Of a stretch of DNA of 64,000 nt, positions 5,149 through 62,245 are shown one piece after another. The first letter of the stretch is position 1. Each line of letters opens with the position of its first letter. Origin of the DNA: Minisyncoccia bacterium (GTDB lineage: Bacteria; Patescibacteriota; Minisyncoccia; Phycocordibacterales; Phycocordibacteraceae). Both the position numbers and the translations under genes were made by a program. The notes under the pieces were generated by a model, which worked only from the letters and a program-made list of their open reading frames with translations, did not search any database and was not told the DNA's origin. The stretch covers positions 142,862 through 206,861 of the forward strand of contig JBBQZW010000001.1 of assembly GCA_038207395.1 (NCBI GenBank). The letters run 5' to 3'.

Positions 5149-5664
5149 TTATGAAGTCTGCATTGCTGCAGCTAACTTTTCTTCCACCAACTCTATTTCA
5201 TGATCAATCCCTTGGATAAGTTCATAGTTTCCTACTTCTGATGCGGAAATCCAAGCATATTCGGTCGCGTCTTCATCGAGCACAACCTCACCACCGCCAT
5301 ATTTACAGTAAAACGAGAGTACTATTGCAGGGATGCCGTCCGGACGAATGAAAGCGAGGTCGAGTAAATATTGAATATCGGTAACTTCCAAGCCAACCTC
5401 TTCCGTAATCTCCCGACGAAGTGCTGTTTCCACGGCGTTGTACCACTGAGCACTTTCACTATTTTGATACGTTGCTTCACCACTCATGTAATCAGTGGTT
5501 TCAAGTCCGCCACCAGGAACGGTCCACATATTTGGCCAGGCCTTCTTATTCGGAGATCGTTTTGTAATTAGATACGTTCGGTTCCCATTCTCATCCATTT
5601 TCCAAATGATACCGGTAATAGCTATCCGATGTAGATCGGTATGAATTGGTTCAGGAGTGGCCAT
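5149..5664 (-). CDS. NUDIX hydrolase.
   Basis: Nudix box G..x5 E x7 REITEEVGLEV is present. Confidence 0.75.
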   Translation of the reverse strand: MATPEPIHTDLHRIAITGIIWKMDENGNRTYLITKRSPNKKAWPNMWTVPGGGLETTDYMSGEATYQNSESAQWYNAVETALRREITEEVGLEVTDIQYLLDLAFIRPDGIPAIVLSFYCKYGGGEVVLDEDATEYAWISASEVGNYELIQGIDHEIELVEEKLAAAMQTS

Positions 5665-55821: not shown

Positions 55822-56874
55822 CTATTGTCCTCTTTCCAGAACCTCTTGCACTCGGCCTTTTAATTTCAAGGTATTTCCATGCCTCAATAAGCCCAGATAA
55901 GACTGGATTGTTTCACTCTTAACTCCATTCTCGTGTATAGATTTGAGCATGCGTTTCTTAGTCGTAGTACGCAGAGTCCTGTGGTAAGGAAAATGTACCC
56001 AACCAAGAAAATCTATTCCTGACGATACGGTCGCAATAGAAACCTTCAACGGATGGATGGTAAGTCGTAATCTCTCCATGAGGAATGCTTCAATAAGGGG
56101 AAGTTGCGTTTCAAGCGACGCTCTATCTGAAGAGAGGAGCACAAAATCGTCTGCATAGCGCATATAGTATTTAGCCCTTAACATATGCTTCGCGAAATGA
56201 TCGAACTCGTTCATATATACGTTCACGAGGAGTTGGCTCGTGAGATTCCCGAGCGGTAGTCCGACGCCCTTTCTTGTGGAAGAAAAGCTTTCGATAATTT
56301 GGGACAATAACCAACAGATATCCTCATCTGGAATATAGCTCTGAATAATCGAAGTAAGGATGCCGTGATCTATAGATGCGAAGAATTTTCGGATGTCACA
56401 TTTCAGCACCCACCCCGTCTTTGTATAGTTCTTGGAAACCTTACCAGAGAAACGATTGAATCGTTCGAGGGCTTTATGGACACCTTTATTATCTCGGCAT
56501 GAATAGGAGTCAGCGATAAACGTCCGATCGAAGAACGGATAGAGCTTCCGATACAACGCGTGATGCAGAAGTCGATCACGCACACTCGCCTTATGAATAT
56601 CGCGTGGCTTCGGATCAGATATCTTGAATGCCCAATACTCAGAGTGACGGTAGATCTTGCTAGCAAGGTCGTCTCGGAGTCTCAGAATGTTATCCATGAG
56701 ATTCTCCTCAAATTCCCGCACGTCGGTGCGACTCCGCTTCCCCGAAGCGAACTCACGCCATGCTTCGAGCAGGTTTTCTAGCGAAATGATATCGTGATAG
56801 GAACTACTTGATTGAATTTTATTAGGAACATGGAACGTACCCCCCCCCCGAGACTTTTGCCAGTTATTGAGCAT
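55822..56874 (-). CDS. Diversity-generating retroelement (DGR) reverse transcriptase.
   Basis: 350 aa. It has RT motifs including YADD (MRYADDFVLL) and the DGR-specific LPLGNLTSQLLVNVY motif, which replaces the QGxxxSP of retron and group II RTs. It lies 350 nt from a TR/VR pair with adenine-specific mismatches. Confidence 0.9.
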   Translation of the reverse strand: MLNNWQKSRGGGTFHVPNKIQSSSSYHDIISLENLLEAWREFASGKRSRTDVREFEENLMDNILRLRDDLASKIYRHSEYWAFKISDPKPRDIHKASVRDRLLHHALYRKLYPFFDRTFIADSYSCRDNKGVHKALERFNRFSGKVSKNYTKTGWVLKCDIRKFFASIDHGILTSIIQSYIPDEDICWLLSQIIESFSSTRKGVGLPLGNLTSQLLVNVYMNEFDHFAKHMLRAKYYMRYADDFVLLSSDRASLETQLPLIEAFLMERLRLTIHPLKVSIATVSSGIDFLGWVHFPYHRTLRTTTKKRMLKSIHENGVKSETIQSYLGLLRHGNTLKLKGRVQEVLERGQ

Positions 56875-57204
56875 GCTGTTTCAGTATATAAGCTCTGGTA
56901 TGAGTATCGAGACCATTTCCCAAAGAAATCTCGCTATACGCTGGGCGACCGGATAGACCTAGTTTTCATACAGCTCGTGGAATTGCTGTGGGCAGCAGGG
57001 TACCAGGCGAAAGATGAGAAGCTCCCCACCATAGCAGCCGCGATACGGAAATTAGACGGTCTTAAATTTTTGCTTCGTATTGCGTGGGAAATTCAGATTC
57101 TCGATAGCACGAAGTACGCCTCCCTGTCTGAACCTCTCTTTGAGATCGGGAAGATGCTTGGCGGTTGGCGAAAAGGCATAGAAACGAAAACTCCCACACG
57201 TTAA
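56812..57204 (+). CDS. avd: Accessory variability determinant (Avd)-like four-helix-bundle protein. It is divergent from the RT, its 5' end overlaps it, and the start is uncertain.
   Basis: It resembles the TIGR02436 four-helix-bundle / 23S rRNA IVS protein family (FPKKSRYTLGDRIDLVFIQLVELL ... LSEPLFEIGKMLGGW). It sits between the RT and the TR. Confidence 0.6.
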   Translation: MNFIRNMERTPPPRLLPVIEHAVSVYKLWYEYRDHFPKKSRYTLGDRIDLVFIQLVELLWAAGYQAKDEKLPTIAAAIRKLDGLKFLLRIAWEIQILDSTKYASLSEPLFEIGKMLGGWRKGIETKTPTR

Positions 57205-57227
57205 GTGCGGGAGAACCGTGGGAGTTT

Positions 57228-57340
57228 CGAGAGAACGCTCGATTACCGGCATTCCAGTTGTCATCGTCCAGCTTCCACGTGTTGACGTTCCACTTCCGAT
57301 CGTCGCCGTTCCAGTTGACGTTGACGACATAGCCTGCGAC
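57228..57340 (-). repeat. DGR template repeat (TR), 113 nt.
   Basis: It matches 57686-57798 at 99 of 113 positions. All 14 mismatches fall where the minus strand of this copy has A, so this copy is the adenine-bearing template. An in-frame translation reads AGYVVNVNWNGDDRKWNVNTWKLDDDNWNAGNRAFSRN, rich in AAC codons. Confidence 0.88.
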
Positions 57341-57678: not shown

Positions 57679-58209
57679 TCAGTTGCGAGAGAACGCTCGA
57701 CCACCGGCATCCCAGTTGACAACGCCCAGCTCCCACGTGTAGACGTCCCACCTCCGACCGCCGCCGTACCAGTTGACGTCGACGACATAGCCTGCGACGT
57801 AGAACAGGTTCGCATAGCCGTTGTTGAGGAGGTCGCCCGCCTCGCCATTGGGTTGCTTGCTGATCATCTGGTCGATGCGAGCGCACAGCTCGGACTCGTC
57901 GAAGATGTAGTCCTCGCCGAGGCCGGGCGTGATCTCGCGATCGTAGGCGTTTTTCGTCAGCTCGCGCGAGATGAGGGTCAACGAGTCGAGGCTTTCGACC
58001 GGCTTCGCCTTCGAGCGCACACGCGACACGAAGTCGTCGGAGACCCAGACACCCTTGCGGGTTTTGAGAGCCGACGGGTCGTAGGTCGCAATGGCGTCGA
58101 GCGAGACACTGTCGTTGATCAGCTTCAGCACAGCAGGCTTGGGAGCCTGCTGTGCTGAAGCTGATTCGGAAGCCCCGAGCGCAGAACGCTCTTGAGATGG
58201 GCTTCCCAC
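57679..58209 (-). CDS. DGR target (variable) protein with a C-terminal VR. The 5' boundary is uncertain: the GTG start has no obvious RBS and the ORF overlaps an upstream ORF.
   Basis: It is a 176-aa ORF whose last ~37 codons are the VR. The alternative-frame Arg-rich ORF 57527..58219 is rejected. Confidence 0.75.
   Translation of the reverse strand: MGSPSQERSALGASESASAQQAPKPAVLKLINDSVSLDAIATYDPSALKTRKGVWVSDDFVSRVRSKAKPVESLDSLTLISRELTKNAYDREITPGLGEDYIFDESELCARIDQMISKQPNGEAGDLLNNGYANLFYVAGYVVDVNWYGGGRRWDVYTWELGVVNWDAGGRAFSRN
57686..57798 (-). repeat. DGR variable repeat (VR), 113 nt, at the extreme C-terminus of the target gene.
   Basis: It is the variable partner of the TR. At the 14 TR-adenine positions it carries G (10 times) or T (4 times). 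It encodes ...AGYVVDVNWYGGGRRWDVYTWELGVVNWDAGGRAFSRN*. Confidence 0.88.
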
Positions 58210-59102: not shown

Positions 59103-60386
59103 ATGAATAAACTATCTTGGACAACAATCCAAAAACGCGTAAACGATCTGATTCCCCAGGAGATCAACCCTCGCAAGATCACCGACAAACAAATGTCGGA
59201 CCTGAAGCGAAGCCTTAAGAAGTTCAATCTGGTGGAAATCCCCGCCGTGGATTATGACGGCACGATATTAGCAGGACATCAGCGTATCAAGGCTCTCCAG
59301 CTTCTTGGTCGCGGAGATGAGATGATCGACATCCGAGTACCTAATCGCAAACTAACCGAGAAAGAGTCTAAGGAATACCTGATCGGCTCCAACAAACTTG
59401 GTGGAGATTGGGACTTCGACATTCTGAAATCATTTGAACTCGATACGCTCTCGTTCGCAGGATTCGACGACCTTGAGCTTTCTAAGTTCTGGGACACTGA
59501 TAACGAAACTAAGGAGGACGCGTTCGACGTTGAGAAGGAGTTGAAGAAGATCATAGAACCGAAGACAAAGCTCGGTGACATTATTCGTCTTGGTAATCAC
59601 AAGATTCTTTGTGGCGACTCGACTGACCCGAAGAATCTTGCACGGCTTCTAGGGAGCGAACGCGCCAGCATGATCTACTCAGATCCCGTCTACAACATCT
59701 CTATCGACTACGACGGAGGCATTGGCGGTAAGAAGGATTACGGAGGAAACGTAAACGACACGCGCACCTACGAGGAATACAAGACTTTCATCAAGGAAAG
59801 CCTCGCTGCCGCGCTCGCCGTAGCAGACCCCAACACCCATATCTTCTACTACTGTGATCAGGTCTATATTGGCTTGATACAGGAAATTTACCGATCGCTC
59901 GGCATCGCTAACAAGCGGGTGTGCCTGTGGCTCAAGAACTCACAGAACCCAGTGCCGAAGGTGTACTGCAACAAGGCATATGAACCAGCCGTATACGGCA
60001 CGCGTGGAAGACCATACCTCGCGGAAGCCGTAAGCAATCTCAACGAGGTTATGAACAAGGAGTTCGGTACGGGAAACGAGCTTGTGGCGCAGGTGGACGA
60101 CTTCCTCGAGATCTGGACGGCAAAGCGACTTGCCGCGAAGGACTACAAGCACGCGACCTCAAAGCCGATCACACTCCACGAGAAAGCCATAAAGCGATGT
60201 ACCAGACCAAACGAAATCATTCTCGATAGCTTCCTGGGTTCAGGCAGTACCCTGCTTGCCGGAGAACAGCTTGGACGACGCGTGTACGGATGTGAGCTTG
60301 AGCCACGCTTCTGCGACCTAATCGCGATTAGGTTCGAGGCACTTACTGGAACCAAGCCAGTCATCGAACACCATGAAAAAGAATAA
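59103..60386 (+). CDS. ParB-like nuclease domain fused to an N6/N4 DNA methyltransferase (phage-type).
   Basis: ParB N-domain (INPRKITDKQMSDLKRSLKKFNLVEIPAV), methyltransferase motif IV SDPVY and motif I ILDSFLGSGST. Confidence 0.8.
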   Translation: MNKLSWTTIQKRVNDLIPQEINPRKITDKQMSDLKRSLKKFNLVEIPAVDYDGTILAGHQRIKALQLLGRGDEMIDIRVPNRKLTEKESKEYLIGSNKLGGDWDFDILKSFELDTLSFAGFDDLELSKFWDTDNETKEDAFDVEKELKKIIEPKTKLGDIIRLGNHKILCGDSTDPKNLARLLGSERASMIYSDPVYNISIDYDGGIGGKKDYGGNVNDTRTYEEYKTFIKESLAAALAVADPNTHIFYYCDQVYIGLIQEIYRSLGIANKRVCLWLKNSQNPVPKVYCNKAYEPAVYGTRGRPYLAEAVSNLNEVMNKEFGTGNELVAQVDDFLEIWTAKRLAAKDYKHATSKPITLHEKAIKRCTRPNEIILDSFLGSGSTLLAGEQLGRRVYGCELEPRFCDLIAIRFEALTGTKPVIEHHEKE

Positions 60387-60849
60387 ATTCCAGAAGCAGT
60401 TCTTGGACGAACTGCGGAAAGTACCGATCGTTCAAGTTGCGTGCGAGAAGACCGGCTTGTCTCGCAACAGTATCTATCGCTGGCGTAACGAAGATGCAGA
60501 GTTCCGCAAAGCTATGGAGGAAGCAATCGCCGAGGGTGAGGAACTTGTAAATGATATGAGTGAGGGTCAGCTACTCACACTTATCAAAGAGAAGAACTGG
60601 TCAGCGATTAGCTTCTGGCTTCGTAAGCGCAATCCCAAGTTCAAGGATCGCCTAGAGGTGGAAGTTGCACCTAAGCAAGAAGAACTCACGGAGGAACAGG
60701 AAGAGACTGTGCGTGAAGCTCTTCGACTTGCCTCTATGGATCCAACTATTAACCCTGTAACAGAAATCGACCATGGAACAGAACCCATTACCGACGCACC
60801 TGATGGAAACGATGCTGAAGGATCGGAAGGTCCGAACAGCGATCACTAA
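60373..60849 (+). CDS. Putative terminase small subunit (HTH).
   Basis: HTH segment ACEKTGLSRNSIYRWR and an acidic C-terminus. It is immediately upstream of and overlaps the large terminase gene. Confidence 0.5.
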   Translation: MKKNKFQKQFLDELRKVPIVQVACEKTGLSRNSIYRWRNEDAEFRKAMEEAIAEGEELVNDMSEGQLLTLIKEKNWSAISFWLRKRNPKFKDRLEVEVAPKQEELTEEQEETVREALRLASMDPTINPVTEIDHGTEPITDAPDGNDAEGSEGPNSDH

Positions 60850-62245
60850 AGAGAGCCATTGGTACTTCTTCCATTTCTACTTCGCTCACTATGTGAAGTA
60901 CCCGACCGCTCCTTTTCAAAAGGAGTTTATGGGGCTTTCAGAGCGCGAAGACGTGAAGAATCTCGTTGTGGTGGCCTTTCGCGGATCGGCGAAATCGACC
61001 ATCTTCACCATGTCCTATCCGATCTGGGCCATCCTCGGAAAGCAGCAAAAGAAATTCATTGTCATCCTGTCGCAAACACAGGCGCAAGCGAAACAGCATA
61101 TGATGAACCTTAGGCGTGAGCTTGAGGGTAATCCACTTCTCAAGAACGACCTCGGACCATTCCAAGAGGAGCGCAATGAATGGGGTGCAACTTCCCTTGT
61201 GTTCGGAAGGCATGGTGCTCGTATTACCGCCGTCTCAACGGAGCAGAGTGTTCGCGGCCTGCGTCATAATCAGCACCGGCCTGATCTCATAATAGGAGAC
61301 GACCTTGAAGATATTGCTTCCACAAAGACACGAGAGGGGCGTAATAAGACCTACGAGTGGCTAACGGGTGAAGTGATTCCTGCCGGAGACCGAAACACGC
61401 GCCTTATCGTGATCGGAAACCTTCTGCATGAGGATTCTCTCATTATGCGTCTACGCGAGGATATTGAGGGTAAAAGGATCGATGGAATGTTCAAAGCGTA
61501 TCCCCTTCTCGAAGGTCAGAAGATCTTATGGCCTGGAAAGTATCCGACAATGGAGGATATCGAGGAAGAGCAACGGAAAGCGGCAAACGATTACGCATGG
61601 CAACGCGAGTATCTTCTCAACATTGTTCCTGCGGAAGATCAGGTTATTGATCCGGCATGGATCCATTACTACGACGAGATTCCACCGCGCGTGCGGGTTT
61701 ATAGCGATGAGACTTACATGACGAATCTTGAAGTACGCATTGGTGTTGATCTGGCTATCTCGAAGCGCGATACCGCAGACTACACCGCGATGGTGCCAGC
61801 CCTCCTATACGAAAGGAAGAAGGGCTACGACATATACATTCTTCCGAAAATCATCAATAAGCGACTCTCATTCCCCGAAACTGTTGAGACGTGCAAGGTG
61901 ATAAACCAGTCGTACAAAGAGATCAAGGAATGGAACGGACCGGTGTTCGTGATTGAGGACGTAGCGTATCAAAGCGCCCTTCCCCAGCAGCTGAAGGCTG
62001 AAGGGCTCAGACAAATACACACAGTAAAACCGGGCAATGTAGATAAGCGCGCACGACTTATGCTGACCGCTAACCTTATCAAGACAGGAGTCGTAAAGTT
62101 TCCACGGCAAGGAGCCGAGCAATTAATTCAGCAGATAGTCCATTTCGGTGTTGAGAAACATGACGACCTTGCGGATGCATTCTCAGCTCTCGTCTTGGAC
62201 GCGATTGCAGAGCCTCCAAGAACCTTCCGGATCTTTATGCTCTAG
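60773..62245 (+). CDS. Phage terminase large subunit.
   Basis: Walker A AFRGSAKST, Walker B LIIGDDLED, and a C-terminal nuclease-like domain. 490 aa. Confidence 0.85.
   Translation: MEQNPLPTHLMETMLKDRKVRTAITKESHWYFFHFYFAHYVKYPTAPFQKEFMGLSEREDVKNLVVVAFRGSAKSTIFTMSYPIWAILGKQQKKFIVILSQTQAQAKQHMMNLRRELEGNPLLKNDLGPFQEERNEWGATSLVFGRHGARITAVSTEQSVRGLRHNQHRPDLIIGDDLEDIASTKTREGRNKTYEWLTGEVIPAGDRNTRLIVIGNLLHEDSLIMRLREDIEGKRIDGMFKAYPLLEGQKILWPGKYPTMEDIEEEQRKAANDYAWQREYLLNIVPAEDQVIDPAWIHYYDEIPPRVRVYSDETYMTNLEVRIGVDLAISKRDTADYTAMVPALLYERKKGYDIYILPKIINKRLSFPETVETCKVINQSYKEIKEWNGPVFVIEDVAYQSALPQQLKAEGLRQIHTVKPGNVDKRARLMLTANLIKTGVVKFPRQGAEQLIQQIVHFGVEKHDDLADAFSALVLDAIAEPPRTFRIFML

Follow-up and report, generated by a model that had tools for sequence, protein, structure and literature searches.

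A run of ten C residues, or ten G residues on the complementary strand, lies within the overlapping 5' ends of two divergent genes of a diversity-generating retroelement (DGR) in a Minisyncoccia bacterium (Patescibacteriota). The DNA analyzed here, referred to as the window, is a 64,000-nt stretch of contig JBBQZW010000001.1, and the two genes encode the DGR reverse transcriptase (RT) and Avd. We consider it somewhat better than an even proposition that this run is a slipped-strand contingency switch that gates Avd and, in this locus, also RT. The proposal is built on sequence comparison: on the placement of repeats at this junction in related DGRs, on their length variation between otherwise identical sequences, and on the way in which both reading frames pass through them.

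The locus is a bona fide DGR. All features of DGR membership are present: an RT, an adenine-biased pair of template repeat (TR) and variable repeat (VR), and Avd. TR and VR form a 118-nt repeat pair with 87% identity, and all 15 differences between them are at TR adenines, which indicates past DGR activity. Read along the minus strand, the order is target with VR, TR, inverted avd and RT, so that avd is located between TR and RT on the opposite strand; a divergent avd directly upstream of RT was found in 76 of 82 loci. The central features, in window coordinates, are the following.

56840-56849, both strands: C10 (plus)/G10 (minus) repeat, the proposed slipped-strand switch; homologous repeat in about 70 of 80 related loci, length-polymorphic within lineages
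55822-56874, minus strand: DGR RT open reading frame (ORF), 350 aa, start ATG 56874-56872; RVT_1 match (E 2.4e-21) and YADD motif; start codons absent from the tract up to the conserved domain
56830-57204, plus strand: Avd gene, 124 aa, probable start ATG 56830 (mechanical ORF from TTG 56812); match to Pfam bAvd PF22296 (E 7.7e-15)
56830-56874, both strands: head-to-head ORF overlap, ATG to ATG; from the sequence and from co-phasing across the subclade
57223-57340, minus strand: TR; repeat pair, adenine mismatches
57681-57798, minus strand: VR, at the 3' end of a 176-aa target ORF (57679-58209, minus strand); repeat pair

Homologues of the RT number in the thousands (60-87% identity), each beside avd and a TR; homologues at 58-87% identity are mostly from metagenome-assembled genomes (MAGs) of Patescibacteria. 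Exact-protein look-ups with the RT and Avd ORFs of the window returned no identical protein on record, and Avd had no significant match to solved bAvd structures, either by sequence or by profile.

Positions 56840-56849 of the plus strand read exactly CCCCCCCCCC, the ten C residues reported in a preliminary description of this DNA. The same description called such long homopolymers rare, and the next-longest G/C run in the window is indeed only 6; under an independent and identically distributed model, about 0.04 C or G runs of at least 10 are expected per window. The tract falls within the first 15 codons of two antiparallel ORFs. In the RT ORF it extends from positions 2-3 of codon 9 to positions 1-2 of codon 12 and reads S-R-G-G-G-T; it had previously been assigned to codons 10-13, one codon too far. 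In Avd, where codons 9-12 had been given, it corresponds to codons 10-13 if counted from TTG 56812, or to codons 4-7 (T-P-P-P) if counted from ATG 56830. The mechanical ORFs overlap head to head over 56812-56874, and the overlap is 56830-56874 if both ORFs are taken from an ATG.

It is hardly credible that the run is a structural element (G-quadruplex, i-motif or DGR-RNA motif) or an artefact of assembly or poly-G sequencing. Such a view would fit the fact that most loci have the G residues of the run on the RT-sense strand, but GA, GT, CT, CGTT and TGATTGC repeats substitute for it at the same site, an Rfam search found no known RNA family, and the flanks are conserved on both sides in dozens of independent assemblies, seemingly from different projects and years. 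The tract with matching flanks occurs in the related loci L001 (G10) and L096 (G12), and in about 60 more distant ones; as independent assemblies carry it with like flanks, the assembly artefact considered in the preliminary description is ruled out. We also considered the tract as a G/C element of the kind associated with initiation of mutagenic homing and rejected this assignment, as the tract is about 375 nt from the end of TR and not beside VR.

Repeats at the avd/RT junction of related DGRs

We compared approximately 100 related loci (designated by L numbers), mostly from Patescibacteria MAGs, with a core DNA set of 80 loci, one per species genome (481 kb). Poly-G is present at the homologous position of the RT strand in about 60 of these 80 loci, and 9 more have another type of repeat; among relatives with divergent avd, a simple-sequence repeat occupies exactly the tract position in about 85%. 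The layout around poly-G is conserved and consists of ACTGGCAAAAG, 4-6 nt, G(n) and TA. The observed lengths of G(n) are 6 (1 locus), 7 (1), 8 (7), 9 (20), 10 (12), 11 (13), 12 (1), 13 (3) and 14 (1), with modal lengths of 9-11. The 481 kb contain 62 G/C runs of at least 8 nt, 57 of which are at the junction and 3 more at the same place in loci with Avd undetected; only 2 are elsewhere.

Alternative repeats at the junction include (CTGG)n, (TTGG)n, (CGTT)n, (GT)n, (GA)n, (CT)n, (TGATTGC)n and (GGCGGCT)n, with 4-19 copies of the longer units. The unit sizes found at the junction are 1, 2, 4 and 7, and never 3 or 6. A minority of loci (L028, L054, L060, L067, L075, L097, L098, L100 and L102) have lost the repeat or have it in degraded form. 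In addition, RT homologues often have a 'GGG' or 'GGGG' N-terminal extension about 10 codons before the conserved sequence IQFxHxYxxIISLENLL, and these N-termini are read-through of the tract. Comparison with related genomes, a check named in the preliminary description, shows that the junction repeat is conserved by position, and not by sequence type or length. In a separate observation, L192 and L009/L072 have a common RT N-terminus, MPKIIFQ, and carry (CTGATTG)n and (CTGG)n, respectively, at the junction, which suggests turnover of the repeat type.

Among about 70 phage DGRs with co-oriented avd from IMG/VR, none had a repeat at this position, and the only run nearby was a C8 in L138, which precedes the RT anchor by 40 nt. 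By comparison, 4 of 8 viral loci with divergent avd have the repeat. Its presence with divergent avd and its absence from co-oriented phage DGRs tie the repeat to the inverted-avd architecture.

A separate observation concerns L004 (5225-5280), in which G10 is the 3' arm of a hairpin (CCCCTCGCG-TTTT-CGCGAGGGG). This hairpin is followed by TGATAT, 6 nt, and the ATG of a second Avd-like gene (5293-5646, plus strand).

The same comparison bears on the idea of a neutral mutational hotspot, i.e., a repeat that persists by slippage dynamics in a crowded region of overlapping divergent starts and has no regulatory role. We regard this as very unlikely. Neutral repeats are eroded by point mutation, but uninterrupted ones persist here in about 85% of loci at RT identities of 58-87%; other repeat types take their place at this position, never with 3- or 6-nt units, and this one site accounts for 60 of the 62 long G/C runs. 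Loss or degradation of the repeat in L028, L054 and other lineages is on the side of the hotspot, as is the lack of an excess of in-frame alleles over chance.

Hypermutability was assessed by comparing, across samples, contigs whose encoded RT proteins are identical (lineages designated by P numbers). In the P0075 lineage, 9 samples had G8 (one), G9 (five), G10 (one) and G11 (two), with 0 flank differences in 1,300 nt. The 10 samples of P0093 were divided among G8 (four), G9 (three) and G11 (three), with at most 3 flank differences per 1,000 nt, and the 3 samples of P0094 had G11 twice and G10 once, with no flank differences. The two samples of P0117 differed by (CTGG)5 versus (CTGG)11, and their flanks were identical over 1038/1038 and 600/600 nt; as a tetranucleotide difference, this cannot be explained by sequencing errors in homopolymers. 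N-terminal variants, such as AEVGGGRF and AEVGGGGGRF, and 342-aa versus 329-aa forms were likewise present in protein clusters at 90% identity. These data show that the junction tract is hypermutable in relatives. For the window's own group, only relatives at 81-83% nucleotide identity were found (L001 with G10 and L096 with G12), with identical 25-nt flanks. A search with the flank pattern and a variable gap yielded a single metagenome match (L096, G12) and no viral match, and none at the strain level for the window.

One of these lineages also provides information on DGR activity. Four P0075 samples (L177-L180) have an identical TR and a VR that differs in each; the VR-TR mismatches are at TR adenines in 18/18, 17/17 and 11/11 cases, and RT and avd have no substitutions. 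One VR has a 3-nt indel (in L177, VR is at approximately 230-330 and TR at approximately 690-790). Sample-specific VRs with adenine-only differences indicate that the P0075 DGR was recently active.

Start codons, reading frames and promoter-like sequences

The residues that immediately follow the tract in Avd are conserved as amino acids, [RK]-[IL]-L-P-[VL]-L-Q-K. The Leu before Pro is encoded by 10 different codons (TTG 28, TTA 19, CTG 4, ATC 3, CTT 2, CTA 2, CTC 2 and others), and the basic residue located 1-2 nt from the tract uses eight Arg/Lys codons. Since the amino acids are kept through many synonymous codons, the codons abutting the tract appear to be translated. The position of the start codon is indicated by a bias on the opposite strand. 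In main-clade loci, the RT His of IQFxH, whose codon faces the Avd ATG, is encoded by CAT 60 times and by CAC once, whereas the other His codons of the same genes have a CAT:CAC ratio of 289:286 and the neighboring Phe/Tyr codons a ratio of about 55:45. This bias argues that the third base is selected for the complementary Avd ATG; on the Avd strand, this ATG precedes the tract by about 37 nt. In 53/53 loci, its frame continues into the tract without a stop codon, compared with 8/53 and 6/53 for the other two frames. Together, these observations place the Avd start upstream of the tract, and Avd is predicted to read through it as poly-Pro.

The selected ATG is in frame with the Avd body in 14 loci, at -1 in 18 and at +1 in 21; if any upstream ATG is used, the numbers are 32, 27 and 30, and tract lengths modulo 3 are distributed as 22, 21 and 16 across loci. 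We looked for frame preservation across species and saw none. A near-uniform phase is what a mixture of in-frame (ON) and out-of-frame (OFF) alleles would give.

In the window, the Avd ATG at 56830 precedes the tract by 10 nt; it is in frame here and in L001, L193 and L194, and we consider it a more likely start than TTG 56812. TTG 56857 was rejected as a conserved Avd start, as the homologous codon is TTG, TTA, CTN, ATC or GTN and specifies a conserved hydrophobic residue. A side observation on this region is that the first Ile of the RT sequence D-I-I-S (codon 5 after His) is encoded by ATC in 66/80 loci, usually preceded by GAT to give GATATC; this bias may stem from a signal that precedes the Avd ATG on the Avd-sense strand.

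The RT start differs between the main clade and the subclade of the window, which comprises the window, L001, L096, L193, L194, L003 and L002. In most loci, the RT ATG is 13 nt downstream of the tract (21-24 loci), which places the tract outside the RT ORF. In the subclade, this downstream ATG is absent, and RT starts with an ATG located 25 nt upstream of the tract (56874 in the window) that is kept in L001, L096, L193, L194 and L003. No ATG, GTG or TTG is present between the tract and the conserved IQxxxY-DIISLENLL region of the window RT. Comparison with homologues thus places both predicted starts outward of the tract in the window.

The two start codons of the window are linked to each other. 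The RT ATG is the complement of an Avd His codon (CAT in VIEH), and the Avd ATG in turn pairs with CAT, the codon of RT His15. Because each start codon is complementary to an in-frame His codon of the partner, both genes need the same tract length modulo 3. Accordingly, the window, L001 and L193 (all G10) and L194 (G13) are in frame for both genes, and L096 (G12), L003 (G13, with a flank shorter by 1 nt) and L002 (G9) are out of frame for both; the phases of L002 and L003 were worked out by hand. L193 and L194 were retrieved for an in-frame RT, and the finding of an in-frame Avd in the same loci is an independent confirmation of co-phasing. A one-nucleotide slip, which the preliminary description expected to shift one or both genes, would therefore shift both in this subclade. 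The main clade (about 53 loci) has a similar arrangement, in which the Avd ATG is the complement of RT His8 and the RT ATG is the complement of Avd His8, giving a 24-nt antiparallel overlap in codon register.

Additional candidate elements at and near the junction are listed below.

56834-56839, minus strand: -10-like hexamer TACGTT, directly 3' of the G run on the RT strand; TANNNT pattern in relatives
56883-56910, minus strand: promoter-like TCGATA, 16 nt, TATACT; consensus scan, with 1 found versus 0.8 expected in shuffled sequences
57191-57213, minus strand: terminator-like hairpin with a T-rich tail, just past TR and overlapping the avd stop codon; consensus match only

In the main clade, the RT junction consists of CTGGCA, 8 nt plus G(n), TANNNT, 7 nt and ATG. 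TANNNT directly follows the G run in 27/59 loci (46%) versus a background of 1.6%, and T, A and T are nearly invariant at hexamer positions 1, 2 and 6. This layout fits a -10 element with a leaderless RT start, and the repeat may also tune RT transcription in this clade. An alternative function of the repeat would be that of a promoter spacer, located between a -35-like CTGGCA (the complement of the Avd Leu-Pro codons) and the -10 element, with its length altering RT transcription. The ATG exactly 13 nt past the tract has leaderless geometry, 8 nt plus G(n) gives a spacer of about 17-19 nt, and a textbook layout that varies in length between samples (TTGCCA...TATAAT) is present at a neighboring gene. 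The gap is negatively, although weakly, correlated with tract length (rho -0.28, p 0.04); a strict spacing rule, in which gap plus tract would be constant, was rejected on the weakness of this correlation.

As the main role of the repeat, however, a promoter spacer is unlikely. A 17-nt spacer is incompatible with repeats that extend over 24-77 nt, as (CTGG)n and the 7-mers do, the -35-like element of P0075 is 19-22 nt away, and both the selected Avd ATG and the translated codons abutting the tract are left unexplained. In the window, the hexamer TACGTT (56839-56834) is kept, but no start codon follows it and RT begins upstream of the tract; the hexamer may be a relic or an alternative of the main-clade RT promoter. 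The promoter-like site at 56910-56883 ends 8 nt before the RT ATG at 56874, and a leaderless RT mRNA is possible from this site. Promoter spacing is probably an additional role in the main clade and not the role in the window. The suggestion in the preliminary description that a slip could change promoter spacing matches the layout of most relatives, where RT starts 13 nt downstream and a -10-like hexamer is present, and probably does not apply to the window, where both predicted starts are outward of the tract.

A second poly-G was observed in the P0075 lineage (L177-L184), about 35-60 nt past the RT stop codon (e.g., L177 2262-2290). It is flanked by TTGCCA (a near-consensus -35), 8 nt plus G7-10, a perfect TATAAT, 6 nt and ATG, and it precedes a gene for a secreted (signal-peptide) PG_binding_1 protein, followed by an Lcl_C/DUF1566 gene. 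Its lengths in eight samples are 10, 10, 9, 7, 9, 9, 10 and 10, independent of the RT/avd tract. This second tract resembles a typical promoter-spacer phase switch, and the start behind it would be leaderless.

With regard to the surroundings of the window DGR, if the terminator-like hairpin at 57191-57213 is functional, TR RNA and RT mRNA would be separate transcripts. A perfect 22-nt inverted repeat with a 4-nt loop (58118-58165) is present near the 5' end of the DGR target ORF. Genes for GroEL, RNase J, ABC-F and other proteins indicate that the window is part of a bacterial chromosome. Housekeeping genes are on its left side, and genes for an N6/N4 DNA methylase and a terminase large subunit adjoin the DGR (59103-62245), which may be at the edge of a prophage.

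The proposed switch and its alternatives

In the proposed mechanism, slipped-strand mispairing during replication would convert G10 to G9 or G11. Since both genes of the window share a phase, one slip would shift the Avd and RT frames together: G10 (and also G7 or G13) would keep both in frame and be ON, and other lengths would truncate both and be OFF. In the Bordetella phage DGR, cDNA synthesis requires both Avd and RT. An OFF tract would thus silence adenine mutagenesis in a heritable and reversible manner until a compensating slip, such that only a sub-population would diversify the target protein and costly diversification would be limited. In most relatives, the repeat would gate the Avd frame and be placed just upstream of the -10-like hexamer and a probably leaderless RT start. 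We conclude that the window G10 most plausibly represents the ON state for Avd and RT. Switching in this population, loss of function in the OFF phase and the selective rationale are inferred.

Contingency loci are recognized by an uninterrupted, slippage-prone repeat, by its location between the start and the body of an ORF, and by variable length. All of these features were found: the repeat is uninterrupted, lies between the inferred start and the ORF body, and varies in length in four related lineages. A conserved position, interchangeable units of a size not divisible by 3, freedom from interruptions, alleles that differ in length on identical backgrounds, and mixed phases together form the signature of a contingency locus. 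The slipped-strand phase switch put forward in the preliminary description agrees with all of the comparative tests that were run, in which the repeat proved conserved in place and polymorphic in length.

Several observations weigh against a switch. Only 26-46% of species consensus sequences are ON, and ON is not enriched over chance. The start codons were placed by conservation and are thus predicted. Part of the homopolymer length differences between assemblies may be technical, with the exception of the tetranucleotide case. In OFF phases, the in-frame TTG 56857 could yield an N-terminally shortened Avd. The P0093 lineage (L086-L095) has three ATGs in three frames, located 6, 10 and 29 nt upstream of the tract; with all three frames covered, no tract length would be OFF, and the Avd N-terminus would vary instead. 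Its gene calls alternate between 128 and 137 aa. Finally, the four P0075 samples with differing VRs have tracts of 8, 9, 9 and 11, all of which are out of frame, and only G10 is in frame. This mismatch between VR diversity and OFF tracts fits transient ON phases and low-level recoding on the C run equally well.

Recoding could also be the general function of the site. RNA-polymerase slippage, or +1 ribosomal slippage on CCC-C, would give a fixed fraction of in-frame Avd at any DNA length, and the tract would attenuate expression. It is well established that runs of 9-11 suffice for slippage; the phase is uniform across species with ON not favored, yet Avd bodies are under purifying selection, and the VR of P0075 diversifies despite out-of-frame consensus tracts. 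We nevertheless judge this to be quite improbable. The di-, tetra- and heptanucleotide repeats that occupy this site in other lineages are not known to signal slippage or recoding, G/C runs are generally known to slip far less than A/T runs in transcription, and length polymorphism was directly observed at the DNA level.

A broader form of the slipped-strand proposal is that the repeat switch is an integral and ancestral part of the inverted-avd DGR cassette that is dominant in the Candidate Phyla Radiation (CPR)/Patescibacteria, where it would heritably and stochastically gate the retroelement and, in most lineages, serve both as a gate for the Avd frame and as a spacer in a leaderless RT promoter. 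In our judgment, this generalization is evenly balanced.

Implications and relation to known systems

DGRs are most abundant in CPR bacteria. They are, to our knowledge, the only natural system of targeted protein hypermutation in prokaryotes, and we know of little that explains how their activity is restrained. If the proposal is correct, heritable and reversible switching of Avd and RT would explain this simply. The target protein would remain functional in most cells and be diversified in a minority, a form of second-order bet hedging in which a hypermutable switch controls a hypermutator. The tract and VR are less than 1 kb apart (about 850-960 nt), so single long reads in existing metagenomes can link the phase of the tract to the VR haplotype. 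Tract phase should also be considered in surveys of DGR activity and in engineered DGRs.

There is also a consequence for annotation. In automatic gene calls at the junction (L001, L177-L183 and L186-L191), avd is mis-started, truncated to 77-95 aa or missed, and in the same loci RT is extended or shortened with tract length. These mis-called avd and RT ends are a systematic annotation artefact for this DGR clade.

Searches of full-text literature on DGRs or Patescibacteria together with phase variation or repeats found no paper on a repeat at the avd/RT junction or on phase-variable DGR genes. Both components, DGRs and repeat-mediated phase variation, are known, and we did not find their combination at the avd/RT junction described. 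With regard to architecture, Wu et al. 2018 (PMC5758913) assign 90% of CPR DGRs to a 'B3' architecture, which is possibly the inverted-avd layout.

The closest parallels are the intragenic poly-G/C and tetranucleotide contingency loci of Neisseria, Campylobacter and Haemophilus. These loci also have an uninterrupted repeat just past the start, a unit size not divisible by 3, length polymorphism that far exceeds point substitution in near-identical strains, and mixed in-frame and out-of-frame alleles. They gate surface antigens or modification enzymes, whereas the gated products here would be two enzymes of a targeted hypermutation retroelement. In further contrast, a single repeat is present here in two antiparallel overlapping ORFs of an uncultivated, Patescibacteria-type host, and the system is known from sequence.

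A second group of parallels involves promoters. In porA (poly-G) and opc (poly-C) of N. meningitidis, the homopolymer is part of a promoter spacer; in the main clade, poly-G abuts a -10-like hexamer, and the spacer would be about 17-19 nt. In the divergent hifA/hifB promoter of H. influenzae (TA repeats), one repeat likewise serves two divergent genes. Unlike in these three cases, the window tract is part of both coding sequences, the match to a -35 element is weak, and the long tetra- and heptanucleotide versions are unfit as spacers.

The DGR of Bordetella phage BPP-1 (mtd-avd-TR-brt) resembles the window locus in having an RT, Avd, adenine-specific TR/VR differences and a VR at the 3' end of the target, and it differs in that avd of the window is inverted and overlaps RT head to head. 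Phasevarions, in which DNA methyltransferase genes are phase-variable, are generally known to have a repeat switch in the gene for an enzyme that acts upstream of many phenotypes, and in this respect, with a switch set ahead of a generator of diversity, they are similar to the arrangement proposed here. Their output is epigenetic regulation, whereas the output of the DGR switch would be the permanent sequence diversification of one target protein.

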